Shown here: one piece after another, positions 8,160-61,600 of the stretch
Numbering within the stretch: the first letter of the stretch is position 1
How the letters are laid out: the number at the start of each line of letters is the position of its first letter
NCBI GenBank assembly: GCA_964478755.1
Contig: CAYZJP010000007.1
Coordinates: forward strand, 1,117-65,116
Reading direction: 5' to 3'
Length of the DNA: 64,000 nt
Source: an uncultured Klebsiella sp.
Lineage (GTDB): Bacteria > Verrucomicrobiota > Verrucomicrobiia > Limisphaerales > SXTU01
Made by a program: the position numbers and the translations under genes
The notes under the pieces: model-generated
Told to the model about the DNA's origin: nothing
Database searches by the model: none
The model's input: only the letters and a program-made list of their open reading frames with translations

Positions 8160-8169
8160 AATCCTTTTT

Positions 8170-8251: not shown

Positions 8252-8262
8252 AGAAAATCTTT

Positions 8263-9557: not shown

Positions 9558-9690
9558 GCCACAGATGCACACAGATGAAACACAGATAGGAATCAGGAAG
9601 GCGCGAACACACGAAGAAACTGCGTTGCTGTTCCATTCCTCTCTTCCTGATTCGTCTGCATCTGTGTTCAATCTGTGTCTCTTCTGCGGC
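9558..9690. repeat. REP-A intercistronic hairpin element, long form
   Basis: GCCACAGATGCACACAGATGAAACACAGATAGGAATCAGGAAG ... CTTCCTGATTCGTCTGCATCTGTGTTCAATCTGTGTCTCTTCTGCGGC. Lies between the stop at 9552 and the ATG at 9697. Confidence 0.85.
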
Positions 9691-9696
9691 TAAACA

Positions 9697-11486: not shown

Positions 11487-11492
11487 TTTTGA

Positions 11493-11620
11493 GCCACGGA
11501 TGAAACACGGATTGAACACAGATAAGAATCAGGAAGGCAGGAACACAGGAAACGCCAGAGCTGCCCTTTTCCTGCCGTCCTGCTTTTCTGATAATCCTTC
11601 ATCTGTGTTCCATCTTTGGC
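11493..11620. repeat. REP-A intercistronic hairpin element, long form
   Basis: GCCACGGATGAAACACGGATTGAACACAGATAAGAATCAGGAAGG ... TTTTCTGATAATCCTTCATCTGTGTTCCATCTTTGGC. Lies between the stop at 11486 and the ATG at 11630. Confidence 0.85.
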
Positions 11621-11629
11621 TAAAGCAAA

Positions 11630-36893: not shown

Positions 36894-36903
36894 AACGATG
36901 AAA

Positions 36904-37563
36904 TTAGAGCCGGGGATTCAGCCAGCTCGCCAGCCCCGGCAGACTGCGTGTTTGGATCACAATTTTTCCGCGACCCTCGACGCGCGTCACAAAGCCCTCG
37001 CCGCCGAAGAAGCTGGAGAAAATTCCGCCGGCCAGTTGCAGCTTGAGTTTCATCTGCGGCTCGTAGGCCACGAGATGTCCCGTGTCCACGAGGTATTCGC
37101 CCTCCACCTGCCGCTCCAGCAGCTCGCCATACGCGCCATACCAGAGCGTGCCGGTGCCCGTGACGGTGAGGCGGAAAAGTCCTTCCAGCTCGAAGCCGCT
37201 CACCAACCCCGCCCACTTCACGCCGAGCTTCAGGCCCGGGGTGGACGCGATATACGCGCCGGGTTGGAGGCAGATCGTCTCGCCGTTGAGCTGCACCTCC
37301 CTCATGTTGCCGGGCGTGGTTTGCACGAGGGTCACTCGACGCGGCCCGCTCGTCGTGTTGGTGAAGACGTTGATGAACAGCGACTCGCCCGCGAGGAACT
37401 TCTTGGCGAGGCCGGAAAAGAACCCGCCGTTCAACGTCGCCTTCATCGCGAGGTCGGCGGCCATGCTGGACATCGCGTCGGACTCGGCGACGACGCTCTC
37501 GCCGGGGTCGAGGTCAACGTGCAGGTAGGCGAACGAGGGCGCGCCTTCGATGGTGGTTTTCAT
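36904..37563 (-). CDS. AIM24/TIGR00266 (DUF124) family protein, paralog 1
   Basis: 219-aa ORF with GESLFINVF, YLVDTGHLVAY and GGEGFVTRVEG. Lies 10 nt upstream of paralog 2. Confidence 0.75.
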   Translation of the reverse strand: MKTTIEGAPSFAYLHVDLDPGESVVAESDAMSSMAADLAMKATLNGGFFSGLAKKFLAGESLFINVFTNTTSGPRRVTLVQTTPGNMREVQLNGETICLQPGAYIASTPGLKLGVKWAGLVSGFELEGLFRLTVTGTGTLWYGAYGELLERQVEGEYLVDTGHLVAYEPQMKLKLQLAGGIFSSFFGGEGFVTRVEGRGKIVIQTRSLPGLASWLNPRL

Positions 37564-37708
37564 GTGGGATTTGAAAAGCGACTCAGGGATGAAAGACTTG
37601 CGCGGAGAGTGGAGTTGCCGCAGGACAAAGGCAAGCCAGCGTATGAAGCCGGTGGCAAAGAAAACATCTTCGCCCCTGCCCGTGCCCCGCTAGAAGATGA
37701 GGCTGCGT

Positions 37709-37990
37709 GGAGGTTTTCTGTCTTGGAGGTCGGGTGGTTCGTTCTGGTATCAAGGTTTTCTGTCCCGGAATCGAGGTATTCCGCGCCGGGGGCGAGGAGG
37801 CCCAGCTCAACCGCGAGGTATTCCAAGGCGGAATCAAGGTATTCCGGTTCAGCCACGAGGTTATCTGTCTCAGGTTCGAGGTTATTTGGCCCAGGTTCGA
37901 GGTATTCCGGGCCAGCCGTGAGGTTATCTGGTCCAACTTTGAGGTATTCTGACCCAGAATACCTCGTGGCTGACCCGGAAAACCTCATCT
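37709..37990. repeat. Degenerate tandem array with strict 21-bp period, ~12 direct units (core GAGGTATTC / GAGGTTATCTG) plus 2 inverted units
   Basis: AGGT of the core falls at 37711, (37732), 37753, 37774, (37795), 37816, 37837, 37858, 37879, 37900, 37921 and 37942. A perfect palindrome GAGGTATTCTG-acc-CAGAATACCTC sits at 37941-37965. Inverted cores (ACCT) fall at 37961 and 37982. The array lies immediately upstream of the AIM24 operon start (37563). Confidence 0.85.
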
Positions 37991-38237
37991 CCCGCCCGGA
38001 GTTGGCTATTTTTATACACCCTCACCTCCGCTCTGCCCATCAAACCTCCCCGTCCGGTTGCCTTCTGGAACGGATGGGAGTGCGCGCCAGCGGCTTGGAC
38101 GGCCGTAGCACTCTGCCGCTTTGGTGATCGTCGGGGAAATCACGCGCCGGGCCAATGAGCGGCGGCGTCCAACCCCTTTCCGCCCGTTGTGTCTGCGCTT
38201 CACAGCTCCGCGACGAGGCGTCACAGTCCCGGGCAGC

Positions 38238-43647: not shown

Positions 43648-43794
43648 GGGGAGCGCGCCCGCCCCGGGCGCCGCCAACCGCGCCCTCGCGGCTGGCCGTT
43701 GCGCGCACGAACACGAAAACTTTCCGTGCATCGGACGCGCCCGGCGGTCGCCGCGAGGGCGCGGCGACCGACACGCGGGGCGCGTGTGCTCCCC
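43648..43794. repeat. PAL-1 element, intergenic copy (oleC-oleD gap)
   Basis: Starts GGGGAGCGCGCCCGCCCC and ends GGGGCGCGTGTGCTCCCC. About 147 bp, the same length class as the coding copies. Confidence 0.7.
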
Positions 43795-47658: not shown

Positions 47659-47683
47659 AGCAAGGCCGGACTAAGACGAATCA

Positions 47684-47755
47684 GCCACAGATGAAACACA
47701 GATTGAACACAGACCCGGTTCCCCATCTGTGTTTCATCTGTGTTCAATCTGTGGC
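47684..47755. repeat. REP-A intercistronic hairpin element, short form, between pfaC and oleA
   Basis: GCCACAGATGAAACACAGATTGAACACAGA cccggttcccc ATCTGTGTTTCATCTGTGTTCAATCTGTGGC. Lies between the pfaC stop (47768) and the oleA start (47658). Confidence 0.9.
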
Positions 47756-47767
47756 CAAAGAAAGGTT

Positions 47768-50700
47768 TCATTCGCTCACGCCGCGCACGGTGAAGTTCTT
47801 CATCCCGTAAATCACGCGGCCATCCACCGAGAGAAAACCGTCCACCGTCAGCAACAGGTTCTCATCGTCCCACGCCGTGATGACCGCCTCGACCGTCACG
47901 AGCGAGTCGCGCGGAATCACCTGCCCGCGATACGTCCACTCGTGCTTCGCGTCCATCGCGACGGCTTCCCAGCGCAGGCTCGCAGCGTGGCCCCAGCGTT
48001 TCACGGCGCAGAATTTCAGCAGTTGCAAAAACGACTCCAGACCGAGCGAGCCGGGCACGACGGGGTCTTGATAGAAGTGCGCCTGGAAAAACCACTCGTC
48101 CGCCACGACGCGCTTCGTGCCGCGAATGAAGCCGAGCTGCTTCGGCCCGCCGTCCGGCACCCACGCGGTGATGTCGTCCACCATGCGCAGCATCGCGTCC
48201 GCAAACGGCACTTGTGTTGGATACGGCAGCGACTTCGCGCGCGCCAGTTCCGCCGCGCTCGGCTCGTAAAGTTTCACGCCCTTGATGCCTTCCTGTTTTT
48301 CCAACGCTGCCTTCGGGAAGAAACCAAAGTAGGTGTCGCCGCGATAAATTTTCTGCGCGCCCGCGCTGACCTCGAAATCGAACCACTGGATAATCATCCC
48401 CGCCGAGCTGGAGAGGCGCGTGTTCTTGATGCGCGTGGTGAGCGTGCCCACGCCGGGCCGCACGGGCGCGAACTGCGTGCCAGTGCCGCCGAGGTTGCGG
48501 TAGGAAAGGTCGTCGCTGCTCGTGAGCGCGGAGCCGATGTAGGCCGAGAGCCAGCCGCAGGGCTGCAACGCGATTTCGAGCAGCACGGCGAACGGCATAT
48601 CGCCTTGGCGGTTCGCGGCGAAATACCATTCGCCTGGCGGCACGTCGTATTCCGCCGTGACCTCGCCGCCCGCGACCATCTTGAACGCCTCGCAGCCGCG
48701 AATCTCCGTAATGCGGTCGAGGAATTGATATGGCGCGCGCGGCAGCCGCGCGATGCGACGCGGCGAGTCGGAGTCGAAAATGCGGTAAGGCGCGCCGAAA
48801 GCATCGGATGGATTGCCGCTGGAAAAGGCGGTGATGCGCTCGGGGCCGTAGAGCGCAAACTTCGGAGCGCCGGGCTCCGAACCGGCGTGTCCTACTCCAC
48901 TCGTTACTGCCTGCCGGTTTGGAAACCGGCGCTCCGCCGCATTCCACATCGCCCGCAATTCCTCCCGCGTCACGCCCGTGTAGCGCAGGCTCATGTTGCC
49001 GATTTCGACAATCGCCTTGCCGTCGGCATACATCAGCGCGTCGGCGATGACATACGGCTCCGGCCCGTAGCCGATTTCTTTAATTTCGATTTCGTAAGTG
49101 ACAACCTTCGTCGTCTCCAAAACTTGCCCGCGACACTTGAGCTGACCAACAACGCCGGGCACGGGCTCGAGCGCGACGCCTTCGCGTGCTTCCGCCACCC
49201 AGCCGAGCCGCAGCAGATGCACGCGCAACGTGTGCAGGCAGCACTCATACATCAGCGTGCCCGGCATCACGCGGTCGTCCACGAAATGGCAGGTGAGAAA
49301 CCAGTCGCTCGGATGAATGTCCGCTTCGCCGCGAATCAGCCCGAGACCGAACCGCCCGCCATTCGGCTCAAGTTTTTCAATGCGATGCACGAGGCGCATT
49401 TTTCCGCCGGGCAGCGTCACGGGTTTCGCTAGCTTCAGCGCGGCGAACTTCTCTCCAAAACATTTTGCCAAGTCGCCTTCGCGCAATGCGTCGAGTTGCG
49501 CCGCCGAATACGACTCCACCGCCATCGGCACGAAGTCTTCCCAATCCGCCGGGCGTTTGCCGGGCGTTGGCTTGAGTTGCAGCGCGGTGCGCACGACGCC
49601 TTTGCCCGCCGCCAAATCCTGCGGCGTGAAAAAGCCCGCGCAGCCCTCGGTCATCGTGAGCAGCGGCTGGCCGCCAACGGTGGACTCGAAGTTGAACTTG
49701 AAGAGCCACACGCCGCTCTGCTGGAAAAACCGCTCGATGCGGATGTCATAACGAATCACTTCACCCGGCCCAGGCAGACTGCGATGAAAGCAAACCTTCG
49801 CGTCGAGCAGCCGATACATCGCCAGCCCGCGCGTCTGGAAATCAATGCCGAGAAAACCGGAGAGAAACAAATCCGCCTGACCCGCCTCAACCGCGATGCA
49901 CGTCGGAATGCGCCCGCAATCGAGATACCACGCGCCCGGATGAACATCGTGCTCCGTCACGACTCGCCCGTGTGTCATCGAGCGCGGCTCGCCCTCGATG
50001 GCCGTAATGCGGTCCACCAGTTGCAACGGCGTATCGGGCAGCCGCACGCGCGTCGGGAAGGAATCCACTTCAGCGAAGAGCGAGCCGAGCGCGTTGCCAA
50101 TTTTTCCAATCGCAAATTCAAAACACTGCTCGCGCGTGAGCGAGCGCGGAACAGTCGTCGGAGGAGCGCACGCCGCTGGCGTGCCGTCTTCAGCGGCCCG
50201 CTGAAAACGTCGTTCCTCTAACTCTCCTCCACGCGCCTCGAAGAAAGGTGGCATGACGATGGAATTGGGCGGGCCGCCCAATTCCGCACGCGGGCCGCGT
50301 GCGCTCCCCGCCCCATTCGCCGCCCGCGCCACCAAATCCAACTGCGTCTGCACCGCCTCGGACAGCGACTTGAACACGCCTTGCGAGAACGCCAAGTAAG
50401 CCTCGTGCGCCTGCAACGTCGTCGCCTGCGCCTGCGCCATCGCCGTGAGCAATTCGGCTTCAAAAGGATCCTCTGCAACTTCAGTTCTCGCCGGCACAAG
50501 CTGCGGCTCCGCCCCTCTGCTGGGTGGAACGGGCCACTGGCCCGTCCCGTCGGGCGACTCGCCCGACGGAATTTCGGCGCGTGTCCCTGCTACAATCGTG
50601 CTCCCTTCAGTCCGAGAGTGCGCCGTCGCTCCGCGCAGCGGGTCGCTGCGCGGAACAGGCGAGTCGCCTGTTCCACCCGAACCAGACTTCGGCCGCTCCG

Positions 50701-53700
50701 GCACCACGATGCGCGCACCCGTAATGGGGATGACCACCTGCTTCCCTTCCGGTTCCGGCGCGGCTTCTTCTTCGCGCACGCCATACAGCGGCTCCAAGTT
50801 CACCGGCAAACCTTCGGCCCACAGCGCGCCGAGCACTCGCAGCACGTCCAGCAGCGGCTCCTTCGCCGACAGGCACAGCGAACGGGCGAAGTGCGGCTGC
50901 CCTTCCAAAATCTGTCCAATCATCCGCGAGCACGACGCACCCGGCCCCATCTCGATGAAGAACCGCACGCCATCCGCATACGCGGCTTGCACGACGCGCG
51001 GAAAATCAATCGTGGCGCTGGCCTGCGCGACGATGGCATCCGCCGCCGTCTCACGGTCAGGCAAATAACTGCGGCCCCAGCCGCCGCTGTAGAACGTCAC
51101 GTCCGCCGGCGGCGTGGTCGTGAAGCGATGCAGCTCGCGATACGGCTCCAGCACCGGCTTGAGCAGTTCGCAATGCACCGTGCTCACGCCGTCGAGCGCG
51201 AAGAAGTGGCAGCCGAGTTTTGTTACAAGCGCATGCACCTGCTCCGCGTCGCCGCCGAGGACGCATTCGCGCGGCGTGTTGACGATGAGAATGTAAGTGC
51301 GCGCCAGCCCGGCCATCGCAGCGCGGACTTCCTCGGCGGGCCGGTCAACGAGGCCCGCAACCCAAGCGACAGACTGTTCAGCAGGCAGTTTCCACGCGCG
51401 CCGCAGCGCGGCAGATTCGCCGGTCAAATCCTTCGTGAACAACGTCGAGGCCGTGACGCGCGCGAGCATGTCATCACGTGCAGTCCATGCACGAAGTGCG
51501 AACAAACTCGTGCTCTCGCCGAGGCTGTAGCCGATGGCGGCATTGGGCTTCAAGCCGAGCGAAACCGCGATATCGCTGACGAACGCGCCGAGCGCGACCT
51601 GTCCGCAAATCGAAACGCGCTGGTCGGTGACGGGCACGGTGGCATTCCAGAATTGCGCGGCAAACATCTGGCTGGCGAGCCGGTCGTTCTCGCGATCTTG
51701 CGCGCGAAGAATTTCCGGGAACAGCAATCCCAGTTCGCGCCCCATGTCCGCGAAGTGATTGCCCGCGCCGGGAAAGACGAAGGCGACTTTGCCGCGAACG
51801 CGCTTCTCCGGCGGAGTGAAGAAAAGCCGATCACGGTCGCGGTGGTCGAGTGAAGGTAGGGCCGCGCTGCCGCGCGGCTGTTGGATGAGCAAAGCCGCGG
51901 CATCCAGCAACCGGGCAAATTGCGCGCGTTCTTCGGCGATGAAGGCGAGCGTGAGGAGCGCCGAGCATTGCTCGGCATTGGCGGCGGCTCTGGCCGAGCG
52001 ATGCTCGGCGCTCCAATGCCAGCGACGGGCCAGCGTGTCGAGCGGGGCGCTCGGCGCAGAGGCGGCAAGGCGGCGGAGTGAATCGAGTTGCGCGAGCAGT
52101 CCGGCGGCCTCGTCGGCCGCGAATGTGAAGAGGGCATCCCCCCGCTTGGCAGCAGCCGACGTGAGGAGGATCTGACTGACAGCCCTCTCATTAGCACCGG
52201 GCTTCAGCCCGGTGTGAATGCGCGCAAAGTCGCAAGCCGTTTCAACGGCTTCCCGCCCGCCCGAAACCGTTGAAACGGTTTCGGACTCTTCACTGTCCGG
52301 AGACACCCGGCTGAAGCCGGGTGCTAATGAAACAGGAGATGATGGGTCAAAAACTGGAGCTTCCTCCAACACCACACACACCGCATTGCCATCCACGCTG
52401 CTCGTCGTGACTGCGGCGCGGCGCGGGCCGTCGGCGCGGTCGCGAACCCACGGTTGCGGCGCGGCACCGCGCGCGTGACGCGGCAGCACTTCGCCGTGCA
52501 ATGCGAGCGCGGCTTTCGCGAGATTCACAAGACCCGATGCCGCGCCGGTGTGGCCGACTTCGTTTGCCGCGCTGGCGATTAAAACGGAGTTATCAAAACC
52601 AGCCTCAGCACAAGCGCGCGCGGTGGCGAGTTGCGCTGCGGAGCGCGGCCTTGAGGCCGCAGAAACCTCCGAAGTTTTGTTTCGCTCGGACGGGATCTGG
52701 ATCGCCTCGTCCTTCGCGCGCTTCTGCGGCGTGAACGCCGCGCTCCCAACACCGATACCGCGAATCACGGCGTAGATGCGGTCGTTGTCGCGCTGCGCGT
52801 CGTCGAGACGTTTCAGCACAATTGCCACGGCGCCTTCGCCGGGAATTTCATTCGCACCGAGCGCGGCTTCGGCGAGGCGAGCGCGGAGGTCGCCGGTGAG
52901 TTCCACGCCGCCGGAGAGTGCGAGATCGAGTTCGCCCTGTTGCAGCGCGCGCACGGCGATTTCGAGCGCGCTCAGGCCGCTCGTGTCCTCGCTGCACACG
53001 GTGTAGCTCTGGCCGCCGATGCGGAATTCCTTCGCGATGCGGCTGGCGTTCGTGCCGGCGAGCGCGCCCATCGTGCGGTCGGCGTTGAGCGGCGGGCCAA
53101 CGGAATCCGCGGCAGCCTGTCCATCGCGCAGCATCGCCCAGCGCAGATGAAAATCCGTCGTGCGCAAATCCAACCCGAGGCCGATGAAGACGCCCGTCCG
53201 CGCGGGGTTGGGGCCGTTCACACGCGCGTCGGCGAGCGCGTCGCGCGCGACTTCGAGCATCAACGCTTGCTGGGGCAGCAACTCGCCGAGTTCGCGCGGC
53301 GGAATGCGGTAGCGGTTGACGGGTATGGCGAGGTCGTCAACGAAATAACCGGCGAGCTGGGGAGCGCACGCCGCTGGCGTGCCGTCTTCAGCGGCCCGCT
53401 GAAAACTTTGTTCGACTGATTTGTCTTCCTTCGCCGAGGAAGAAGATGGAGTGACGGGCGAATTGGGCGAGCCGCCCAATCCGGCACGCGGGACGCGTGC
53501 GCTCCCCGTCGAGCCGCAGGACGAGCGGAGCAATTCAGTGTTCAGGCCGCGCCAGTCGAAGCGGGCTTGCGGCTGTGTCTCGGTGTCCGCACCGAGCACG
53601 CGGGCGGCGAAGGAACGGAGATTTTTCCACGGACCGATGTGCGCCGCGAGGCCGACGATGGCGATGGGAAATGGGGGATGGGGAATAGCGTCTGGCGTCT

Positions 53701-55303
53701 GGGGCGAAGCGCTTGGAGCGCCGGCTTCCAAACCGGCGTTTGCCGATGCACCGGAACTCAGCTCTCGCCGAACCGGAGTTCGGCGCTCCGTTTGTCCGCA
53801 CCACTCCTCGATGAGCACGTGCGCGTTGATGCCGCCGAAGCCGAAGCCGTTGATCGCTGCGCGGCGAGGCGCGTTTGCTTCACGACGATTCCACGGCTGG
53901 CTTTCCTTCAACACGCGGAAGGGGCTTTCGCCGAGCGGAATTTTATCCGAGGGCCGCTGAAAATTCGGCACGGCGGGCAGCGTGTTATTTTTCAGCGCGA
54001 GCAAGACCTTGACAAGCCCCGCCGCGCCCGCGCCGGTGAGCAAGTGGCCGATGTTGGCCTTCACCGCGCCGAGCGCGCACTGGCCGCGCTGCCACGGACG
54101 CCCGGCCCAGAGTTGTTGCAGGCTCGTGAACTCGACCGCGTCGCCGACCGGCGTGCCGGTCGCGTGGCACTCGATAAAATCCACCGTCTCCGGCTCCCAT
54201 CCGGCGGACGCGTAGGCGAGCCGCAGCGCGCGCAACTGGCCTTCGGAACTGGGCGAAAGCAAATTCCCGTCGAGATCGTTCGACACGCCCGCGCCGCGGA
54301 TGAGCGCGTGAATCTCATCGCCGTCGCGGAGGGCGTCGGAAAGGCGCTTCAACACGACGACGCCCGCGCCTTCGCCGACGATGAGTCCGCTCGCCGCCGC
54401 ATCGAAGGGCGTGCAACGCCCGCTCGTCGCAAGCGCGCGGAGCTGCGAGAAACCCATCTGCGTGTAGAGCGAATCGGGCCGCGAGACGCCGCCCGCAAGC
54501 ATCGCATCGGCGCGGCCCGCGTGGAGTTCGTCGCTGGCAAGCTTGAGGGCGTAGAGCGATGAGGCGCACGCGGCGTCGAGCGTTCGCGTGCCGCCGCCGA
54601 GGCCGAGGGCTTGCGCGAGGATCCCGGCGGGCAGACCGGCGACGTAGCGGTTGAGCGGATGGGTTTGGAGTGGGTGGAACGGGCTACCAGCCCGTTCCGT
54701 CCGGCCACTGGCCGGGCGGTTGTTATCGTGCGCGCTGGAGCGGCGTGCGCTGGGAGCAGGGATGCGCGCGGTCGTTCCGTTCGGCGGGTCGCCGAACGGG
54801 ACAGGCGAGTCGCCTGTTCCACCCTGCAATGGGCGGACGCCGAAGAGTTTCTCCTCCAGCAACTGCGTCAGGATTTCCTCACAGAGCTTGGAGGAACTTT
54901 CCGTGGGCAACGCGATGTGGCCGAGAGTGACGCCGACGCGGCTGCGGTCGAGTGCAGCGGTCTTTGCGCTGGTGAAGGCGTCGCGGCCCGCAGCGAGCAG
55001 GAGGTGGACGACGGGGTCGAGTTGCGCGAGCAGGTCGCGGTCAACGGCGAGGCCGGCGGGGTCGAGCGTGAAGCCTTCGATGAAACAGGCGCGGTCGGTA
55101 TAGACGCGGTCGGGCGTGCCGGGCGTGGGATGGAGGATGTCGGCGGGGTTCAGCCGCCAGCGGCCCGGCGGCGCGGGACGGCTGGTGTCGCGTCCGGCGG
55201 CGATGATTTGCCAGAACTCGTCCAGCGAGCGAGCGCCGGGGAAGACGCCGCCGAAGCCGACGATGGCGATGGGTTCGCCGAAAGATGGCGGGGCGGCGGT
55301 CAT
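47768..55303 (-). CDS. pfaC: PUFA-synthase PfaC-like megasynthase: KS - CLF-like KS - AT - 2x(FabA-type DH pair)
   Basis: Uninterrupted 2511-aa ORF. KS: IAIVGFGGVFPG, DAACASSLYAL, ECHATGTPVGD, NIGHLLTGAG. The second KS-like domain lacks the Cys (...CSEDTSGLSALEIA). AT-like: FVFPGAGNHF, GYSLGES. FabA-like DH: VTEHDVHPGAWYLD, HPSDWFLTCHFVDDRVMPGTL, EYDVPPGEWYF, ADEWFFQAHFYQDPVVPGSLGLE. No C-terminal acyltransferase. Confidence 0.9.
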   Translation of the reverse strand: MTAAPPSFGEPIAIVGFGGVFPGARSLDEFWQIIAAGRDTSRPAPPGRWRLNPADILHPTPGTPDRVYTDRACFIEGFTLDPAGLAVDRDLLAQLDPVVHLLLAAGRDAFTSAKTAALDRSRVGVTLGHIALPTESSSKLCEEILTQLLEEKLFGVRPLQGGTGDSPVPFGDPPNGTTARIPAPSARRSSAHDNNRPASGRTERAGSPFHPLQTHPLNRYVAGLPAGILAQALGLGGGTRTLDAACASSLYALKLASDELHAGRADAMLAGGVSRPDSLYTQMGFSQLRALATSGRCTPFDAAASGLIVGEGAGVVVLKRLSDALRDGDEIHALIRGAGVSNDLDGNLLSPSSEGQLRALRLAYASAGWEPETVDFIECHATGTPVGDAVEFTSLQQLWAGRPWQRGQCALGAVKANIGHLLTGAGAAGLVKVLLALKNNTLPAVPNFQRPSDKIPLGESPFRVLKESQPWNRREANAPRRAAINGFGFGGINAHVLIEEWCGQTERRTPVRRELSSGASANAGLEAGAPSASPQTPDAIPHPPFPIAIVGLAAHIGPWKNLRSFAARVLGADTETQPQARFDWRGLNTELLRSSCGSTGSARVPRAGLGGSPNSPVTPSSSSAKEDKSVEQSFQRAAEDGTPAACAPQLAGYFVDDLAIPVNRYRIPPRELGELLPQQALMLEVARDALADARVNGPNPARTGVFIGLGLDLRTTDFHLRWAMLRDGQAAADSVGPPLNADRTMGALAGTNASRIAKEFRIGGQSYTVCSEDTSGLSALEIAVRALQQGELDLALSGGVELTGDLRARLAEAALGANEIPGEGAVAIVLKRLDDAQRDNDRIYAVIRGIGVGSAAFTPQKRAKDEAIQIPSERNKTSEVSAASRPRSAAQLATARACAEAGFDNSVLIASAANEVGHTGAASGLVNLAKAALALHGEVLPRHARGAAPQPWVRDRADGPRRAAVTTSSVDGNAVCVVLEEAPVFDPSSPVSLAPGFSRVSPDSEESETVSTVSGGREAVETACDFARIHTGLKPGANERAVSQILLTSAAAKRGDALFTFAADEAAGLLAQLDSLRRLAASAPSAPLDTLARRWHWSAEHRSARAAANAEQCSALLTLAFIAEERAQFARLLDAAALLIQQPRGSAALPSLDHRDRDRLFFTPPEKRVRGKVAFVFPGAGNHFADMGRELGLLFPEILRAQDRENDRLASQMFAAQFWNATVPVTDQRVSICGQVALGAFVSDIAVSLGLKPNAAIGYSLGESTSLFALRAWTARDDMLARVTASTLFTKDLTGESAALRRAWKLPAEQSVAWVAGLVDRPAEEVRAAMAGLARTYILIVNTPRECVLGGDAEQVHALVTKLGCHFFALDGVSTVHCELLKPVLEPYRELHRFTTTPPADVTFYSGGWGRSYLPDRETAADAIVAQASATIDFPRVVQAAYADGVRFFIEMGPGASCSRMIGQILEGQPHFARSLCLSAKEPLLDVLRVLGALWAEGLPVNLEPLYGVREEEAAPEPEGKQVVIPITGARIVVPERPKSGSGGTGDSPVPRSDPLRGATAHSRTEGSTIVAGTRAEIPSGESPDGTGQWPVPPSRGAEPQLVPARTEVAEDPFEAELLTAMAQAQATTLQAHEAYLAFSQGVFKSLSEAVQTQLDLVARAANGAGSARGPRAELGGPPNSIVMPPFFEARGGELEERRFQRAAEDGTPAACAPPTTVPRSLTREQCFEFAIGKIGNALGSLFAEVDSFPTRVRLPDTPLQLVDRITAIEGEPRSMTHGRVVTEHDVHPGAWYLDCGRIPTCIAVEAGQADLFLSGFLGIDFQTRGLAMYRLLDAKVCFHRSLPGPGEVIRYDIRIERFFQQSGVWLFKFNFESTVGGQPLLTMTEGCAGFFTPQDLAAGKGVVRTALQLKPTPGKRPADWEDFVPMAVESYSAAQLDALREGDLAKCFGEKFAALKLAKPVTLPGGKMRLVHRIEKLEPNGGRFGLGLIRGEADIHPSDWFLTCHFVDDRVMPGTLMYECCLHTLRVHLLRLGWVAEAREGVALEPVPGVVGQLKCRGQVLETTKVVTYEIEIKEIGYGPEPYVIADALMYADGKAIVEIGNMSLRYTGVTREELRAMWNAAERRFPNRQAVTSGVGHAGSEPGAPKFALYGPERITAFSSGNPSDAFGAPYRIFDSDSPRRIARLPRAPYQFLDRITEIRGCEAFKMVAGGEVTAEYDVPPGEWYFAANRQGDMPFAVLLEIALQPCGWLSAYIGSALTSSDDLSYRNLGGTGTQFAPVRPGVGTLTTRIKNTRLSSSAGMIIQWFDFEVSAGAQKIYRGDTYFGFFPKAALEKQEGIKGVKLYEPSAAELARAKSLPYPTQVPFADAMLRMVDDITAWVPDGGPKQLGFIRGTKRVVADEWFFQAHFYQDPVVPGSLGLESFLQLLKFCAVKRWGHAASLRWEAVAMDAKHEWTYRGQVIPRDSLVTVEAVITAWDDENLLLTVDGFLSVDGRVIYGMKNFTVRGVSE
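48864..48935. repeat. PAL-2 element in-frame in pfaC (between DH modules)
   Basis: GGAGCGCCGGGCTCCGAACCGGCG ... GCCGGTTTGGAAACCGGCGCTCC. Encodes AERRFPNRQAVTSGVGHAGSEPGAPK. Confidence 0.85.
50163..50309. repeat. PAL-1 element in-frame in pfaC (AT-DH linker)
   Basis: GGAGCGCACGCCGCTGGCGTGCCGTCTTCAGCGGCCCGCTGAAAAC ... GGAATTGGGCGGGCCGCCCAATTCCGCACGCGGGCCGCGTGCGCTCCCC. Encodes GSARGPRAELGGPPNS...RRFQRAAEDGTPAACAPP. Confidence 0.85.
50522..50678. repeat. PAL-3 element in-frame in pfaC (after AT)
   Basis: GGGTGGAACGGGCCACTGGCCCGTCC ... GGAACAGGCGAGTCGCCTGTTCCACCC. Encodes GGTGDSPVPRSDPLRGA...SGESPDGTGQWPVPP. Confidence 0.85.
52151..52172. repeat. PAL-5 solo arm in-frame in pfaC
   Basis: AGCAGCCGACGTGAGGAGGATC matches 19 contiguous nt of the PAL-5 left arm at 4466-4488. 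Encodes ...ILLTSAAAK... Confidence 0.7.
52188..52329. repeat. PAL-7 multi-hairpin element in-frame in pfaC (CLF-AT linker)
   Basis: Terminal inverted repeats TCATTAGCACCGGGCTTCAGCCCGGTGT / ACACCCGGCTGAAGCCGGGTGCTAATGA; each arm is itself an 8-bp hairpin. The centre has CCGAAACCGTTgaAACGGTTTCGG (11-bp stem). Encodes SLAPGFSRVSPDSEESETVSTVSGGREAVETACDFARIHTGLKPGANE. Confidence 0.85.
53359..53507. repeat. PAL-1 element in-frame in pfaC (inside the CLF-like region)
   Basis: The first ~50 nt are near-identical to the 50163 copy (GGGGAGCGCACGCCGCTGGCGTGCCGTCTTCAGCGGCCCGCTGAAAAC). Ends ...GAATTGGGCGAGCCGCCCAATCCGGCACGCGGGACGCGTGCGCTCCCC. Encodes GSARVPRAGLGGSPNS...SFQRAAEDGTPAACAPQ. Confidence 0.85.
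53715..53789. repeat. PAL-2 element in-frame in pfaC (KS-CLF linker)
   Basis: GGAGCGCCGGCTTCCAAACCGGCG ... CGCCGAACCGGAGTTCGGCGCTCC. Encodes TERRTPVRRELSSGASANAGLEAGAPS. Confidence 0.85.
54672..54824. repeat. PAL-3 element in-frame INSIDE the pfaC KS domain
   Basis: GGGTGGAACGGGCTACCAGCCCGTTCC ... GGGACAGGCGAGTCGCCTGTTCCACCC, 153 bp = 51 codons. Encodes QGGTGDSPVPFGDPPNGTTARIPAPSARRSSAHDNNRPASGRTERAGSPFHP, about 50 codons upstream of DAACASS. Confidence 0.85.
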
Positions 55304-55643: not shown

Positions 55644-58600
55644 TCACGCGGGCAGATGGTTCTGGCGGAAGGCTTCGCGGAGGTTCGCGTCCACGACAAA
55701 CTCGTAGCCTTCGCCGAGCGCGAGCAACGCTCCGGCGCGGTCGAAGAATTGCAGGTCGGCCACGGCCACGGGCGTTTCCGCCGAGGTGACGCGCGCGACG
55801 ACGCGGCTGCCGCCGGTCTTCGGGAACGCGGCGAACTGCCGGAAGCTCCGCAGCGCGCACGGCAGCGACGGCGCGGCGCGTTGCGCGGTGCTCCACAAAA
55901 TCATGAGCTGAAACGCGGCATCGAGCGCGAGCGGGTCGGCCAGCCACGCGGGCCGCAGCGGCTGGGCAATCATCTGCTTCGGCGCGGGCGCGGAGCGGAC
56001 GAGCGCGGCGGCGTTCGTCGGATTGCAGACTTCGAGCGCCTCGATGCATTGGAAGTCCGGGCCGTGGAAGAGACGTCCATCGCCATAAACTTTCTCCGAC
56101 AAAATGCCGTTGCGCTTCACGGCGGGCGTGATGCTCGGTGCGGTGGGCAGCGTGTCCGCGAGAAGAATTTCCGCCGTGGCGTGCAGCGTGGATTTGTTGC
56201 CGCCGTTGCGGCTGGTGAATTGCACCGGCACGGCGAGCAGGCCGTCGCGCGGCTGCGGCGGTGCAGCGGAAACGGTGACGTGCGCGGTGGCGTCGCCTTC
56301 GAGGACGAGGCCCTTGAGCACTTTGAAGCCGTCGAAGCCGTGGAAGGCGAGGCCGGGGTTGCCGTGCAGCGCGCCGTGCGCGAGCCACTCGATGATGAGC
56401 GCAGCCGGCAGGACAGCGCGGCCGTTCATGACGTGCGAGACGAGGCAGGGCAGCGCGCGGACGGAAATGTCACGGTCGAACGCGGGGTGGAAACTGGAGG
56501 GGGAACTTACTGGTCCGGGTGGAACGGGCCACTGGCCCGTTGCGGCGGGCGACCCGCCCGCCGCTCGAACTGCGCCCAGTGCGACCCGGTTCGGCTGAAC
56601 GGTGACGGTGCCGAAGCTCGACGGCAGGTTGCCGTCGAGAACGGCCAAGTTGGCCGTTCCACCCTGAACAGGCTGGGCCAACGCGAGGATTTCGACGGCT
56701 TCGCCGGTGGGGGCGAGCACGTCGCGGACGAAGCAATCGGCTCCGGCGTCCGGCTCGATGAGGCCGACGCCTTCGCGCTCGAAGATTTTGCGGAGGCCGT
56801 CGTTGACCATGCCGCCGTTCCACGGGCCCCAGTTGAAGGCGACCACGCGGCACTGCGGGCGGCGGCGGGCCTCGGCCTGCGCCATCTTGTTCAGCACTTC
56901 GTTAGCGGCGGCGTAATCCACCTGGCCGGTGCGGCCGAAGCGTCCGGTGTAGCTGGAGAAAAGTGCGATGAGGCGAAGGTCGTCGGTCGCGGTCGCGGCG
57001 AGGAGGTTGCGAAGGCCGTGGACTTTCGTGCCATAGACGAGGTCGAATTGCTCCTCGGTCTTTTGCTCAATGAGTTTGTCGGCGAGCACGCCCGCGCCGT
57101 GGATGAGGCCGCGAATCGGGCCGTGCGCGGCGCGGACTTCCGCGAGCGTGGCGGTGACGGTGGCGGCATCGCGGACATCGAGCGTGGCGTAGTGCGCGAG
57201 CGCGCCGGTCGCGCGAATCTCAGCGAGGTGCGTGCGGATTTCGCGCTGGGCCATGACTTCGCGGAACTTCGCTTCCAGCCGCTTCGGCGAGCGGTCGCCG
57301 TCGGCGTGCGCGAGCAGGGCCTTCTTAATGTCGGCTTCGCTCGTGAGGCCGACGAGCCAGTGCGGCTCGGCGTCGGGCAACGTGCTGCGGCCCAGCAGGA
57401 GGAAGCGCGGCTGGTGGCGGCGAGCGAGTTCGAGGACGGACGTGGCGGTGACGCCGCGCGCGCCGCCGGTGACGACGACGAGGTCGCCGCGCTGGAGGGC
57501 GGGCGCGGGGTTGTCGAGCACGGGGGCGGTCTCGATTTCGAGGCTGTAGCGCTGACCGCCGAAGAGGCCAACCTCGATTGGGCCGGCGCGGAAGATTTCC
57601 TCGGTGATTTGGTTCGCGAGTTCGGTGCCGCTGGCCGCGCCGGGGTCGAGGTCGAGAGCTTTGCAGTGAACTTCCGGCCACTCGTGGCGCGCGGTTTTCA
57701 CGAGGCCAGCGAGGCCGCCGCTGACGACGTCGGCGGTCGCGTTCATCACGCCGAGGCCGAAGAGTCCGTCGAGGCGTGAGGCGGAGACGAGCACGGCGGC
57801 TCCGCTGCGACCAGCCGCGCGCAGCGAGGGCGCAGCGACTTGGATGAGACGGAAGGCCGACTTGAGGAAAGCGTCGCCGCCGGACGCAGCGGGCGCAAGC
57901 AGAACGAGCGCGGCGGGCAACGGGGCGTTGCGGTCGGCGAGCAGTTCGGTGGGCGCGCCGCGACGGACGGTGAGGCCGCGTTGCTCAAGGTTCTTGACGA
58001 GCGCGGCGGTGAGGCTGGTGCCATCATCGGTGAGCCAGACGAGTGAGCCGGGCGCGAGCGTGACGTGCGGGCGCGTGTCGGCGGCTGGGAAAGGCGTAGG
58101 GCGGAGGATTTGGCGGAAGAGCGTCGGCCTGGGTGGCACGGGCGACTCGCCCGTGACGGTCGGCGACCCGCCGACCGGAATGGCAGAAGGCAAGCGAGTG
58201 GGAAGCTGCGCTGGCTTCGCAACGGACGCGTTCGTCGTTTCGTCCGGCGAGTCGCCGGACGGGACAGGCCAGTGGCCTGTTCCACCCGGAGCAGAACCCG
58301 CGCACAGGAAATCCACGACCTCCTGCAGGGTGCGAAGGGAGCCGAGGTGCTCGGGTTTGATTTCGGGAGCGCTGGGAAGTTGCGTGCGGAGCGCGGCCAT
58401 GATTTCGACGCGCTTGATGGAGTCCACGCCGAGGTCGGAATCCAGCCCCATGCCGAGGTTCAACATCTCGAGGGGGTAGCCGGTTTTTTCAGAGACAACT
58501 TGAAGGAGAACGCGACTGGCTTCGGCAGCGTCAACACCGGCGGAGACAAATGCATCCCGTGCGCTGTCCGCCGCTGTAACGCCACGCACTTCAACCGTGG

Positions 58601-61600
58601 AAGAGCCGCCCGCGCAGAGGAAGTTCACCACGTCCTGTAAAGTCTGCAACGTGCCGAGGTGCTCGGGTTTCACCTCCGGCGCATCGGGCAGGCGCGCGCG
58701 CAACGCGGCCATGATCTCGACGCGCTTGATGGAATCAATGCCGAGGTCGCTGTCCAGGCCCATGCCGAGCGTGAGCATCTCGGCGGGGTAGCCGGTTTTT
58801 TCGGAAACAATTTCGAGAACAGACGTCGCAATGCGGGAAATGTCCGCAGTTTGTGGAACGCGCGACTCCGGCGGGCAGTTCCCATCGTCGTGCTGGGATC
58901 TCTGTTCGACCGGCTTTTCATTGCGAACGACGACTGAAGTCTGAGCGGCAAATGAATCGGGCGCGACGCCCGATTCAGCACGCGAGACGCGCGCGCTCCC
59001 CAACGCTTCACGCTGCATCGGAGCCGATGAAACGGGCGCAGGAGCGATTCTCTGCACAGCGTCCGGCGCGGCGGCGGGCGCGAGCGGCGGCAGGCCGAGC
59101 AATTCGCGGCGCTGGCCCAGCAGCGATTCGAGCGAGCGGCGGGCGGCCTCCTGGTTTGCGAGAAATTGCTGGTGCAACTGCGCGGTCTGCTCCTGCAGCT
59201 TTTGCAGAGCGAGCATTCCCTGCTGCGCCGTTTGCAGCGCGGCGGCAACGTCACCGGAAAGCGGCGCGGCAGGCGAAGCAGCGCGTTGCTCCGGTGAAGT
59301 GTTGCTGTTCGCATTGACCATTTCGCGGCGCGGCAGCGGCGGACGTTCCGGCGGGCGCGTCATGCGGACGTTCGCGCCGGAGACGGGCACAGTGAACGCG
59401 GGCTTCGCGTTCTTTACCGGCGCGGCGGGCGGGACAGTTTCCCACTTCGTCAAATCCACCGCGTGACCGAGCGCGGCAACGCGGCAGAGCGCGATGGCGA
59501 GATCGAACGTGCCGTTGCGCGTGCCGCGCGAGGCGTCGAGCGCGATGGCATCCACGTCGCGGCCCGGCAGAATCGCCTGCACGAGGTCGCACAGCACGTG
59601 GCCGGGGCCGAGTTCGAGGAAGGTCGTAACGCCGTCCGCGTGCATCGTCTCCATTTGCTTGATGAAGTCCACGGGGCGCACCATCTGGCTGGCCAGCAGG
59701 TCGCGCGCGGGCTTCGCGCCCGGCGGGTATTCCCTGGCCGTCGAGTTCGCATAGACAGGGATGCGGCCCTTGGTGAAAGGAATTTCCTCCAGCACGGCGG
59801 CGAACGGCTCGCGCGCGTCGGCGACGAGCGAACTGTGAAACGCGGCGGCAACCGGCAGCACGCGGGCGCGGATGGAGCGCTTCGCGGCCTCGCCGGCGGC
59901 GTATTCGATCTGAAGCTTCGGCCCGGCGAGCACGAACTGCGTGGGGGAATTGCGGTTGGCGATGACGAGCTGCGAATCGTTCAGGCGCGCGAGTTCGGCG
60001 ACGGTTTTTTCCTCCGCCTGCACGGCGAGCATGGAGCCGCGGTCGCTGTGGCCGTTGCGGTTCGCCATCAGCCGGCCGCGCACGTTCGAGAGCAGGTGCA
60101 GCGACTCGCGCTTCAACCGGCCCGCGCCGTAGAGCGCGGCGAGTTCACCGTAGCTGTGGCCGGAAGTCGCTTCGATCGTGATGCCGAAGGATTCCGCAAG
60201 GCTCAACGCGGCGACGCTCACCGCGCCGAGCGCGGGCTGCGCGACGTCGGTGGCCTTCAATGCTTCTTCCTGCGCGTGACGGGCTTCGTCGTTGAAGGCG
60301 GGATGCGGGTAGATGAAGTCGCTGAGGCGTGGCTGCGCCGCCTCGGCGCAGCGGGGTGCGGGCGACGCCGCGTCGCCCGTTCGTGCAGCGGGGCGCTGCG
60401 CCCACGCGGACTGCGACGAGGGCGTCGCAGCCACGGCGAAAGCAGCGTCAGCGTCGGCCAGCGCGTCGAGCACTTCGGGGAACTGGCACGCGAGGTCGCG
60501 GAACATCCCGACGTATTGCGAGCCTTGACCGGGGAAAAGCGCGCCCAGTTTGCCGCGCCGCTCGCCGGAGCCGAAGCAGACGCCGGTGGGCAAGGCCCAG
60601 GAAGTTTTGTCGGGATGTTTGTCGAGCATCGCGAGCGCAGCATCGCGGAGCGGGGCGAGAGAGAATTGTTCGGAAGCCACCCCCTCACCCCGGCCCTCTC
60701 CCCCGGCGGGGGCGAGGGAGGAGGAGGCGGTGGGTTTTGACGACGATTCTTTTGAAAGCGGAAGCAACAGGCGGAACTTCGCTTCGATGCGGAAGGACTG
60801 GCGCGAGGCGTGGGCGCGGCGGCGAAGGTCAGGCCAGGGAAGTTCAGTAGGCAGCGCGGCGAGTTGCGCGCGGAGGTCGGAAAGTTTTTCGGCGCAGAGC
60901 GCAAGGATTTCCACGTCGCCGTTCCAATCGGGTGCTTGGCGCGCGCCGCCGTGTTCTTCGAGGACGCAGTGAAAATTCGTGCCGCCAAATCCAAAGGCGC
61001 TCACGCCAGCGCGGCGTGGATGATTCGCGCGCGGCAGCCACGGGCGCTTCGTCGTGTTCACGTAGAACGGCGAGCCGGGCGCGGCGTCATCGAGCGGCTG
61101 GGAAACTTTGATGGTGGGCGGCAGGACTTTTCGTTCGAGTGCGAGCGCGGCCTTGATGAGTCCGGCGACGCCGGCGGCGGCCTTCGTGTGGCCGATCTGC
61201 GACTTCACCGAACCGAGCGCGGCCCAAGCGCCATCTGACTTCGCGGCGGAAAAAACTTTCGTGAGCGAACGCAGCTCCGTGGCGTCGCCGACTTTGGTGC
61301 CGGTGCCGTGGGCTTCGATGAGTTCAACCGTGTCAGCGGTGACATCCGCGTTGGTGTAGGCGCGTTCGATGGCCTGGATTTGGCCTTCGGAGCGCGGCTC
61401 GTAAATCGCGCCGCCGCGTCCGTCGCTCGACGAGCCGATGCCCTTGAGCACGCAGTAAATTTTGTCACCGTCGCGCTCGGCGTCGGTGAGGCGCTTGAGC
61501 ACGACCATGCCGAGTCCTTCGCCGAGGATGGTGCCGTCGCAATTTTTGTCGAAGGGCTTCGCGTCCCCCGTCGGCGAGAGCGCCGGGGTTTTGCTGAAGC

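Follow-up and report, generated by a model that had tools for sequence, protein, structure and literature searches.

The 64-kb stretch of DNA analysed here (the window) hosts four copies of a palindromic repeat, PAL-1, and one relative of that repeat. All four copies lie within genes, and we consider it highly probable that PAL-1 derives from a RAYT element and is a non-autonomous, REPIN-like form of it. RAYTs, or REP-associated tyrosine transposases, are Y1 HUH enzymes related to the TnpA of IS200/IS605. In the autonomous or parent form of the family, a RAYT gene lies between the same two arms. PAL-1 itself has two inverted arms with a short, A/T-richer spacer between them. Each arm has a tag, GGGGAGC (the REP 'GTAG' in a GGAG variant), and two hairpins, of which the terminal one is GCACGC-N5-GCGTGC.

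Copies of PAL-1 in the window

The host genes, the copies and the relative are given below.

30447-33653, plus strand: host gene valS, 1068 aa (Pfam tRNA-synt_1, Anticodon_1, Val_tRNA-synt_C)
31085-31211, plus strand: valS copy ('valS-type' subfamily), 127 nt, a net insertion of 126 nt or 42 codons; encodes GSVGGPPADSGGSPESSSIHLKSEERVSGGQPDTAREPRALP, aa 214-255, at the beta-hairpin turn where the CP1 editing domain begins
43648-43794, no strand assigned: 147-nt palindromic element between two minus-strand genes; termini GGGGAGCGCGCC...GCGTGTGCTCCCC
47768-55303, minus strand: host gene for a pfaC-like PUFA/polyketide synthase, 2511 aa, KS-CLF-AT-DH-DH (Pfam)
50161-50309, minus strand: pfaC copy a, 149 nt; aa 1666-1714, GSARGPRAELGGPPNS...QRAAEDGTPAACAP, in the hypervariable linker from the AT to the first FabA-like DH domain (Pfam)
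53359-53507, minus strand: pfaC copy b, 149 nt (GGGG to CCCC), with 147 nt or 49 codons from GGG AGC to GCT CCC; aa 600-648, GSARVPRAGLGGSPNS...QRAAEDGTPAACAP, separating the KS C-terminal extension from the second (CLF-like) KS domain (Pfam)
55644-62534, minus strand: host gene for a pfaA-like synthase, KS-AT-ACP x2-KR-DH (Pfam)
58853-59001, minus strand: pfaA copy, diverged, 149 nt; aa 1179-1227, GSARVSRAESGVAPDS...NCPPESRVP, in the linker directly upstream of the first ACP domain

Pfam agrees with the names that the first-pass annotation of this DNA had given to the host genes (valS, pfaC and pfaA). The border that it placed at 50163 for pfaC copy a has been moved to 50161, judging by the true element ends, GGGGAGC...GCTCCCC; in this copy the start reads GAGGAGC. 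The terminal inverted repeats of PAL-1, GGGGAGCGCACGC / GCGTGCGCTCCCC, extend over at least 13 nt, and the left (plus-strand) arm of the pfaA copy has decayed. The inserted peptides of ValS, PfaA and PfaC are 42-49 residues long and rich in Gly, Ser, Ala, Arg and Pro. The common peptide reported for them earlier is indeed present, as GSARGPRAELGGPPNS, GSARVPRAGLGGSPNS, GSARVSRAESGVAPDS and GSVGGPPADSGGSPES, and is entered by GSAR/GSVG.... It is encoded in the frame G|GGG AGC GCA CGC (G-S-A-R; hereafter f1), which is the sole sense frame open in all four copies. Scanning the whole window against Rfam gave no family at the gathering score. The earlier annotation named neither a family (REP/REPIN-like) nor a likely mobilising enzyme (RAYT).

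The copies were aligned globally and each pair was scored against 200 shuffles. The two pfaC copies are identical at 124/147 positions (score 159, shuffle maximum 13), and 46 nt are identical at the end of ~50 nt that had been described as nearly the same in both. They match the pfaA copy with scores of 31 and 55 (~73-75% identical, shuffle maximum 15) and the valS copy with scores of 49 and 54 (80% identical, shuffle maximum 18). The latter match is found only for the valS plus strand against the reverse complement of the pfaC plus strand, therefore the four copies share one orientation relative to the host coding strand, and the observation of a common frame and orientation, first made for valS and pfaC, holds for all of them. 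At 74-84% identity none of the window copies is recent, and no transposition event has been caught under way.

The first-pass annotation had counted five copies and had proposed alignment against shuffled sequence as a check. The two pfaC copies, the pfaA copy and the valS copy pass it with scores far above those of shuffles, while the fifth, 43648-43794, proves to be a relative only. Its scores against the PAL-1 copies (11-16, shuffle maxima 16-21) are no better than shuffled, and a PAL-1 HMM returns it with an E of ~1; these two results rule it out as a fifth copy. It resembles PAL-1 in its termini (GGGGAGCGC...GTGCTCCCC), in being 147 nt long and in its palindromic architecture. A superfamily arm profile matches its right arm (E 1.5e-5), and its f1 peptide (PGAANRALA...) reappears at PfaC site b, the position of copy b, in an orthologue (P0123). 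The element belongs to the same superfamily as PAL-1 and to a different subfamily.

Four of the five elements fold strongly as DNA, with energies of -47 to -65 kcal/mol and hairpin z-scores of -5.1 to -7.6 (pfaC b -5.1, pfaC a -5.6, valS -7.6, 43648-43794 -5.1). The fold of the diverged pfaA copy is weak (z -2.75).

Filled and empty sites in orthologues

At the sites of the ValS and PfaC segments, orthologues from related Limisphaerales are empty, carry the same element or carry other repeats, which indicates that the segments are insertions and that the sites are permissive loops and linkers. Comparison with ValS orthologues had been suggested earlier. Among 30 close orthologues, 14 are empty at the site and read ...VAEAPGT-WLTIATT..., four carry the orthologous PAL peptide and the remainder have other repeat-derived inserts; the solved T. 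thermophilus ValRS (1GAX) is contiguous at the insert site in the sequence alignment. The 127-nt valS-type subfamily is also found in the ValS genes of L122, L123 and L021 (two copies) and in a kinase gene (L054). For PfaC site b, 13/22 orthologues are empty (RGLHPEALAAQ-PGYFVDD), one has PAL-1 and one has a 43648-type element, and at site a the orthologues have PAL-1, other repeat families or nothing. An orthologue that has PAL-1 at neither site (P0125) is 2285 aa long. Across the clade, ValS orthologues range from 888 to 1211 aa and PfaC orthologues from about 2000 to 2600 aa.

PAL-1 is also present at other sites in related contigs (L125, L126 and L140), one of them intergenic. For example, L125 has a copy downstream of the pfaC stop codon. 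The density of copies in these relatives reaches four in 16 kb (L125) and three in 9 kb (L140). Together with the empty orthologous sites, these copies support the earlier proposal that the ValS and PfaC segments are insertions of a common mobile element. In the orthologues, the linker at the pfaA site is a different one of about the same length, which fits insertion and replacement alike. Filled and empty alleles differ beside the insert as well, so that the exact pre-insertion sequence and the element borders cannot be reconstructed from them. An AlphaFold model of ValS (30-sequence alignment) has a mean pLDDT of 48.7, the insert scoring below 50, as does most of the protein.

A repeat family of Verrucomicrobiota and its RAYT

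An exact scan for GCACGCNNNNNGCGTGCGCTCCCC returned at least 120 loci. Among the matches listed, ~115 are from Verrucomicrobiota, and the terminus GGGGAGC-GCACGC-N5-GCGTGC is nearly confined to this phylum. The arms, with two hairpins each, pair into elements of 100-160 nt: the matches listed include 26 elements with two perfect inverted termini (103-159 nt) and 98 paired elements at up to 2 mismatches per terminus. No ORF spans about two-thirds of these 98 sampled elements, and 17 are found within coding-like ORFs. A mostly extragenic location is part of the definition of REPs; taken together, the family fits it, unlike the window copies, which are intragenic in 4/4 cases. Family members are in frame in DnaE, UvrA, DNA ligase, a Ser/Thr kinase, ValS and PfaA.

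The arm unit is GGGGAGC followed by GCACGC-N5-GCGTGC; the tag is GGAG in most arms and a true GTAG (GGGTAGC) in a few. In 91 arms, picked by eye as free of indels, pairing extends to 91.5% of cells, with a covariation score of 0.486. Shuffles scored 0.144, none of 500 reaching the observed value, and slid controls scored 0.07-0.17. Changes on both sides are seen in 14/17 pairs over the two helices, including all 10 pairs of hairpin 2, and the hairpins are conserved in intergenic copies too.

The sole gene found between such termini is a Y1_Tnp RAYT. By tblastn a RAYT lies beside the termini in six of the 120 listed loci (L002, L010, L112, L007, L019 and L085), and Pfam confirmed Y1_Tnp in both of the RAYT loci scanned (L002 and L007). 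In the DNA of L127 and L128 the arms flank a RAYT as well, making eight loci in all. The short elements and these RAYT-bearing ones have arms of the same build, with two hairpins each, and the associated RAYTs have the HUH (DHVH) and Tyr (YICRNP) motifs. RAYT proteins found independently by core homology bear the source name 'REP element-mobilizing transposase RayT'. Among the best 120 of them, 96 start with the arm peptide GSARASRA... and 98 end in ...ARALP or ...ACAP; the DNA of L127 and L128 confirms that these protein ends are encoded by the arms. Some RAYT copies are in frame within recG, metH and alaS; three species have kept the RecG insertion, whose evolution resembles that of RecG itself. 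No RAYT gene was found in the 64-kb window by tblastn, none of the best 120 RAYT proteins has PAL-1-specific arms (GSARGPRA...AACAP), and a metagenome scan with the PAL-1-specific arm gave 16 loci with no cognate RAYT.

The link to RAYT also bears on the reading frame. Both pfaC copies have a stop in every antisense frame. Over the family, the three entry frames differ little in openness (stop-free fractions of 0.58, 0.73 and 0.69, against ~0.40 for shuffled interiors), that is, the elements are depleted in stops in all frames, yet f1 is used by 13/17 intragenic copies, so stop codons alone are rejected as the cause of the common frame. A replication-strand bias is an unlikely source of the common orientation, since valS lies 16 kb from the pfa genes on the other strand and orientation tracks the coding strand. 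The associated RAYT gene is itself read across both arms in f1, therefore the frame is partly a built-in property of the element family, whose arms have most likely long been shaped as coding sequence by translation of the RAYT gene through them. The common frame thus has two causes: stops in the other frames or orientation, and the identity of f1 with the RAYT frame. Selection for an open frame, as proposed in the first-pass annotation, fits the antisense stops of the pfaC copies and accounts for only part of the pattern.

We propose that the arm hairpins are recognised in single-stranded DNA by a RAYT whose gene lies at another place in the genome, and that this enzyme would move PAL-1 without target-site duplication. 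Genic copies would then be retained only where a loop or inter-domain linker tolerates them, where the length gained is divisible by three and where no stop falls in the frame of the host gene. Such conditions would leave PAL-1 one orientation and essentially one frame (f1), and the retained inserts would persist as 42-49 extra residues in ValS, PfaA and PfaC that are probably neutral to their hosts.

A more specialised reading, which we put forward tentatively as a real possibility, is that this RAYT/REPIN family of Verrucomicrobiota has adapted to life within reading frames. The whole element, RAYT included, would be one end-to-end open frame without a start or stop of its own, and the transposase would be made only by translation begun in host sequence, either as an internal domain (in RecG, MetH and AlaRS) or by operon coupling. 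Short derivatives of the PAL-1 type would inherit this frame neutrality, and in-frame copies may then build up in housekeeping genes. Unusually long RAYT proteins have been dropped by earlier surveys as fusions or annotation errors (PMC6006769). If true, this would be a translational 'hitch-hiking' lifestyle that has not been described for REP/RAYT systems.

Alternative explanations, known systems and significance

The size of PAL-1 and its terminal inverted repeats of at least 13 nt would also suit a classical MITE, an internally deleted IS with terminal inverted repeats, mobilised by a DDE transposase and flanked by target-site duplications. In L125 the sequences on either side of PfaC site b, CAGTTCGCACCG and CAGCTTGCCGGC, resemble each other loosely (7/11, manual count). 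However, the four window copies have no target-site duplications at their borders, where a search for them had been suggested, and no direct repeats of 2-8 nt are enriched at the flanks of 104 elements once palindromic extension is accounted for; the flanks merely prolong the palindrome (TCY|GGGG...CCCC|RGA). The only protein gene between the termini encodes a Y1/HUH RAYT rather than a DDE enzyme, and a hairpin whose structure is conserved while its sequence covaries agrees with an enzyme that recognises single-stranded DNA and not a fixed duplex repeat. We therefore find a classical MITE improbable. A non-mobile origin, in which the segments spread by recombination or gene conversion between similar low-complexity pfa linkers, or are convergent low-complexity sequence, strikes us as more improbable still. 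Three of the four copies do lie in two adjacent, related multidomain genes, and family members swap at the same orthologue sites, suggesting exchange via common termini. Against this, the valS copy is 16 kb away on the opposite strand, related copies are found in intergenic DNA and in kinase, DnaE, UvrA and ligase genes of other genomes, and the similarity is at the nucleotide level and includes a palindrome, which is of no use to a peptide linker.

It may also be asked if mobility explains the origin only, the host having come to benefit from a flexible linker peptide or from a strong mRNA or DNA hairpin, for instance as a translational pause between domains or as a nuclease or IHF-type site. 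All copies are at domain boundaries or loop turns, the ValS copy is kept in several species, the hairpins of orthologous ValS copies are kept by compensatory changes (CAGGCG/CGCCTG to CGACCG/CGGTCG), and the depletion in stops (0.58-0.73 against ~0.40) extends to all frames. The same hairpins are conserved in intergenic copies, however, so the constraint need not stem from the host gene, and many orthologues manage without the insert. The ValS insert is identical to that of L123 at 27/42 positions (manual count), whereas whole ValS proteins in the alignment are 72-85% identical to the window protein, which shows that the peptide evolves no more slowly than the remainder of ValS. On balance we think such exaptation unlikely, and prefer the REPIN-like derivative of a RAYT element.

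The likeness to REP/REPIN-RAYT systems (Nunvar 2010, PMC2817692; Bertels & Rainey 2011, PMC3116915; Messing 2012, PMC3479197; Di Nocera 2013, PMC3733652) is extensive: short G+C-rich hairpins with a conserved 5' tetranucleotide tag, two inverted units that make a larger hairpin (the REPIN), the same units flanking a Y1/HUH RAYT gene (here in related genomes only), absent target-site duplications and covarying stems. Unlike these systems, the PAL-1 family has the tag GGAG and rarely GTAG; GGAG is outside the degenerate forms given in PMC3733652, so the REP tag is present only as a variant. Further differences are the two hairpins per arm, the genic, in-frame location of all four window copies, and the RAYT frame of this clade, which crosses both arms with start and stop codons outside the element. 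Intragenic REPs have been described before, with the highest numbers in Opitutus terrae, also a verrucomicrobium (Di Nocera et al. 2013, PMC3733652). The GTAG REPs of that species resemble PAL-1 in phylum, in occurring as singles and dimers within ORFs, and in their host genes (uvrA, DNA ligase, helicases and tRNA synthetases), but their inserts are shorter, 7-30 aa as opposed to a 42-49-aa unit of four hairpins. PAL-1 is not one of the published O. terrae families GTAG-17 to GTAG-20, whose listed peptides (VGPALAAG, GTGVPPV and others) and sequences do not match.

The Rickettsia palindromic elements (RPE-1 to RPE-10) are likewise palindromes of ~100-150 bp found in frame in unrelated protein genes. 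Their host is an obligate intracellular alphaproteobacterium, unlike the free-living, G+C-rich verrucomicrobium studied here. To our knowledge RPEs are still without an assigned transposase, whereas for PAL-1 a candidate mobilising enzyme, RAYT, can be named. RPEs are in frame in many unrelated housekeeping genes, the added peptide being tolerated by the fold (PMC10969869, PMC3733652). We liken PAL-1 to RPEs in behaviour and do not file it among them; Rfam gives no match, and the host belongs to the Verrucomicrobiota. Bacterial MITEs (Correia/NEMIS, ERIC, RUP and Nezha) are also small, end in terminal inverted repeats, encode nothing themselves, and are now and then fused in frame with host ORFs; PAL-1 differs in having no target-site duplication and a parent whose enzyme is of the Y1/HUH and not the DDE type. 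IS200/IS605 elements and their palindrome-associated non-autonomous derivatives (PATEs) share with it a Y1 HUH enzyme, the absence of target duplication and conservation of hairpins near the ends rather than of a fixed duplex sequence. The ends of IS200/IS605, however, are not mutual inverted repeats, whereas those of the PAL-1 family are nearly symmetrical, and the IS200/IS605 transposase has its own start and stop.

These results have several uses. For annotation and phylogenomics, the inserts matter as they inflate alignments and yield spurious 'hypothetical' peptides, while permissive insert sites are natural maps of insertion tolerance in large enzymes. PAL-type inserts explain the length variation of ValS and PfaC in this clade. 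The link to RAYT supplies a testable mechanism for in-frame palindromic elements and, if the end-to-end open frame is real, it would amount to a new expression route for a domesticated or selfish transposase. In-frame palindromic inserts of the Rickettsia type, mobile DNA that becomes additional peptide loops of essential enzymes, are not limited to reduced genomes, and are also a feature of large, free-living Verrucomicrobiota of soil and freshwater.

Insertions of PAL-1 into host genes

The window is verrucomicrobial DNA with a G+C content of 64%, and the closest homologues of its ValS carry the names Limisphaerales, Pedosphaera or Verrucomicrobiae.

Genes (Pfam) and palindromic repeats in the window; PAL-2 is a second family of about 150-157 nt
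30447-33653, plus strand: valS; PAL-1 at 31085-31211
47768-55303, minus strand: pfaC-like synthase, domains KS-CLF-AT-DH-DH; PAL-1 at 50161-50309 (copy a) and 53359-53507 (copy b); PAL-2 at 50522-50678 and 54672-54824
55644-62534, minus strand: pfaA-like synthase, domains KS-AT-ACPx2-KR-DH; PAL-1 at 58853-59001; PAL-2 at 56517-56666 and 58131-58287
43648-43794: intergenic palindromic element
8160-8262, 9560-9703, 11485-11633 and 47665-47770: A/T-richer palindromic family on AGCCACAGATGAAACACAGATTGAACACAGA and its reverse complement

The longest pfaA ORF opens with a GTG and about 67 Arg/Ala-rich residues ahead of MSQSAPLAIVGLS (62330-62534). The real start is probably the Met of MSQSAPLAIVGLS, at about 62333, and the part upstream of it may be non-coding.

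Element pairs were compared by global alignment, with 200 shuffles as the control. The two pfaC copies score 159 (identity 124/147, shuffle maximum 13), pfaC with pfaA 31 and 55 (about 73-75%, maximum 15) and pfaC with valS 49 and 54 (80%, maximum 18), so the repeats claimed for these genes are present. Mean column identity across the four is 77%. To obtain the valS match, the valS plus strand has to be set against the reverse-complemented pfaC plus strand; all four copies are therefore oriented alike relative to the host coding strand. The first-pass annotation had counted 43648-43794 as a fifth copy. This element has the termini, length and palindromic build of PAL-1, and its right arm matches the family-arm profile (E 1.5e-5). 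In global alignment with the PAL-1 copies it scores 11-16, within shuffle maxima of 16-21, and the PAL-1 profile matches just its last 27 nt (E about 1); on these two grounds it was rejected as a copy; it is a relative. Four of these five elements form long hairpins far beyond shuffles (z -5.1 to -7.6), and for the decayed pfaA copy z is -2.75. At 74-84% identity, the PAL-1 copies show no recent transposition.

The proposal that a mobile element had inserted is supported by empty orthologous sites. Of 30 close ValS orthologues that were aligned, 14 have nothing at the site (...VAEAPGT-WLTIATTRPET), four (P0002, P0006, P0012 and P0014) carry the orthologous element, and the remainder carry other repeat-derived segments at exactly that position. 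Comparison with the solved T. thermophilus ValRS (1GAX), where residues 207 and 208 are adjacent and the window protein has 47 extra residues, places the insertion in the hairpin turn through which the chain enters the CP1 editing domain. At PfaC site b, 13 of 22 orthologues have no insert (RGLHPEALAAQ-PGYFVDD), P0122 has PAL-1 and P0123 has a 43648-type element. Site a is a hypervariable linker, where three orthologues have PAL-1 and most of the rest have repeats of other families. At the pfaA site the orthologues' linker is a different one of much the same length, so the copy there may be an insertion or a replacement. The residues beside the insert also differ between filled and empty alleles, so the exact pre-insertion sequence is not reconstructable.

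The ValS loop at 31085-31211 is a hot spot, its repeat families differing among orthologues P0002-P0111 ("SLLTSAAT", "LTPALSPSDGERVA/GEGE" and short GSAGVSPA...AGGTPALSG forms). ValS lengths in the clade run from 888 to 1211 aa, with several more variable regions besides this loop. Around residues 150-215, PfaC has PAL-2 in the window (54672-54824) and PAL-1 in the related contig L125 (3160-3307), making this N-terminal stretch another permissive site, used by different families. L125 holds four PAL-1 copies in 16 kb, one directly after the pfaC stop codon; two further related contigs hold two (L126) and three (L140), the latter each in entry frame f1. The length subfamilies of 149, 131 and 127 nt span different genomes in a neighbour-joining tree.

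A phylum-wide family and its RAYT genes

An exact scan for GCACGCNNNNNGCGTGCGCTCCCC, with one genome per species, returned at least 120 loci, and about 115 of the 120 listed are from Verrucomicrobiota (Chthoniobacterales, Udaeobacter, Verrucomicrobiae, Opitutales and Limisphaerales). Among the matches listed, 26 elements of 103-159 nt have two perfect inverted termini and 98 are paired at up to two mismatches per terminus. Each arm has a GGGGAGC tag and two hairpins, a terminal one and a second one, which is subfamily-specific in sequence and always keeps its pairing. In 91 arms, hand-picked as indel-free, 91.5% of the cells are paired, the covariation score is 0.486 versus 0.144 for shuffles (0/500 as high) and 0.07-0.17 for slid partners, and both sides have changed in 10/10 pairs of hairpin 2. 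Target-site duplications, which had been suggested as a check, were not detectable at the borders, where the flanks merely extend the palindrome (TCY/GGGG...CCCC/RGA, slashes marking the borders).

A gene for a REP-associated tyrosine transposase (RAYT; Pfam Y1_Tnp) lies between family termini in 6 of the 120 listed loci. The arms there have the two-hairpin build of the short elements, so a PAL-type element resembles a RAYT element that has lost its gene. In one copy the tag is a true GTAG (GGGTAGC), linking the GGAG form with the superfamily of GTAG REPs of Di Nocera et al. (PMC3733652).

Whole RAYT elements, arms and gene together (577-617 nt), stand in frame in RecG (L002 5234-5850, also L010 and L112), in MetH between the homocysteine-binding and pterin-binding domains (L007 3012-3588), and in alanyl-tRNA synthetase (alaS, L019). 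The RecG insertion occupies the same site in three species, with 205 aa in each, and its identity is 72-79% versus 63-78% for the flanks. Between L002 and L010 it has 62 synonymous and 43 non-synonymous codon differences. It evolves at about the rate of RecG itself. Other in-frame family members are hosted by ValS (two copies in L021), a Ser/Thr kinase, DnaE (two copies), DNA ligase, UvrA, a DUF1295 protein, PfaA and a TonB-dependent receptor, and the gene classes reported for intragenic REPs match these hosts (PMC3733652).

The shared reading frame

All four host copies are entered as G/GGG AGC G.. (frame f1), giving GS(A/V)(R/G), as the first-pass annotation had claimed for unrelated genes. 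The pfa copies run from GGG AGC to GCT CCC over 147 nt, or 49 codons, and end in ...ACAP or ...RVP. In valS the copy is of the 127-nt subfamily, makes a net insertion of 126 nt, or 42 codons, and ends in ...RALP. Selection for an open frame had been offered as the reason. The three antisense frames all contain stops in pfaC copies a and b, and f1 is the sole open frame of six in copy a, so filtering by stop codons explains the common orientation. It is not enough to account for the choice of frame: the stop-free fractions of the three entry frames are about equal across 105 elements (0.58, 0.73 and 0.69; shuffled interiors about 0.40), and f1 is used by 13 of 17 copies within coding-like ORFs and by 4/4 in the window.

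The RAYT genes offer another source for this preference. A second search used the RAYT core as the sole query, so the result is independent of the termini; it returned 343 proteins, for which one source has the name "REP element-mobilizing transposase RayT". Among the best 120, the arm peptide GSARASRA.. is found at the start of 96 and ..ARALP or ..ACAP at the end of 98, and the median distance from the start codon to the left terminus downstream of it is 12.5 residues. The DNA of loci L127 and L128 agrees: from the ATG to the left terminus there are 38 and 26 nt, and from the right terminus to the stop 11 and 54 nt. The RAYT frame of this clade therefore spans both arms, and the element itself supplies neither a start nor a stop codon. 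The frame is f1, as in the host genes of the window, and the preference for f1 is better explained by a long past of the arms as RAYT coding sequence than by stop filtering.

The "stand-alone" RAYT genes of the clade (L127 4001-4624, L128 4001-4657; proteins P0241-P0360) begin 8-22 codons before the left REP terminus and end beyond the right one, and in L127 the ATG shares bases with the stop codon of the gene before it. A pilus-like operon holds RAYT at one position in two genomes (Amuc_1102 / PilM / Amuc_1100 / RAYT / ... / secretin).

Other repeats and known systems

PAL-2 arms have two hairpins each (GGGTGGAACAGGCGACTCGCCTGTTCC...GGGCCAGTGGCCCGTTCCACCC), and their match to the profile of PAL arms is weak (E 0.005). 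The tag of PAL-2, GTGG, is reminiscent of the GTAG-20 REPs that PMC3733652 mentions for O. terrae. All four copies use one frame, GGTG(D/H)(S/W)PVP...TGQWPVPP, and the other sense frames stop in some copies. A 38-nt segment (CAGTCAGAKCCTCCTCACGTCGGCTGCT..) at 4530-4567 recurs inverted at 52141-52178, where it encodes ..SQILLTSAAAKRG... inside pfaC, and has the look of a third family of repeats, likewise translated. The perfect 29-nt inverted repeat GCGGCGGAGCGCCGGTTTCCAAACCGGCA (16162-16190 and 48912-48940) lies in two different long ORFs and encodes ..AAERRFPNRQA... in pfaC. By the ORF table, copies of the AGCCACAGATGAAACACAGATTGAACACAGA family appear to fall between long ORFs, one directly downstream of pfaC. 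The segment 37813-38000, towards the 3' end of ORF 36898-38127, has five or more tandem copies of a 21-nt unit and then the array again in inverted form; the copies encode a degenerate 7-residue repeat (..SRYSGP..RLSGP..).

In the literature searched we found neither the PAL-1 family nor RAYT genes that lack a start and stop of their own described; one survey dropped long RAYT proteins, taking them for fusions or annotation errors (PMC6006769). The target duplication and DDE parent of a MITE do not fit PAL-1. At family level it has the structure and RAYT association of REP/REPIN systems, but departs from them in its tag, its two-hairpin arms, its translation and a RAYT frame that covers the arms. 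The 64-kb window has no RAYT, and none with PAL-1-specific arms was found among the best 120 of 343 RAYT proteins or the PAL-1-arm metagenome loci. In how it works PAL-1 resembles both a REPIN and a Rickettsia palindromic element. It would be mobilised by a RAYT, and the peptides that it adds to its host proteins would be neutral.
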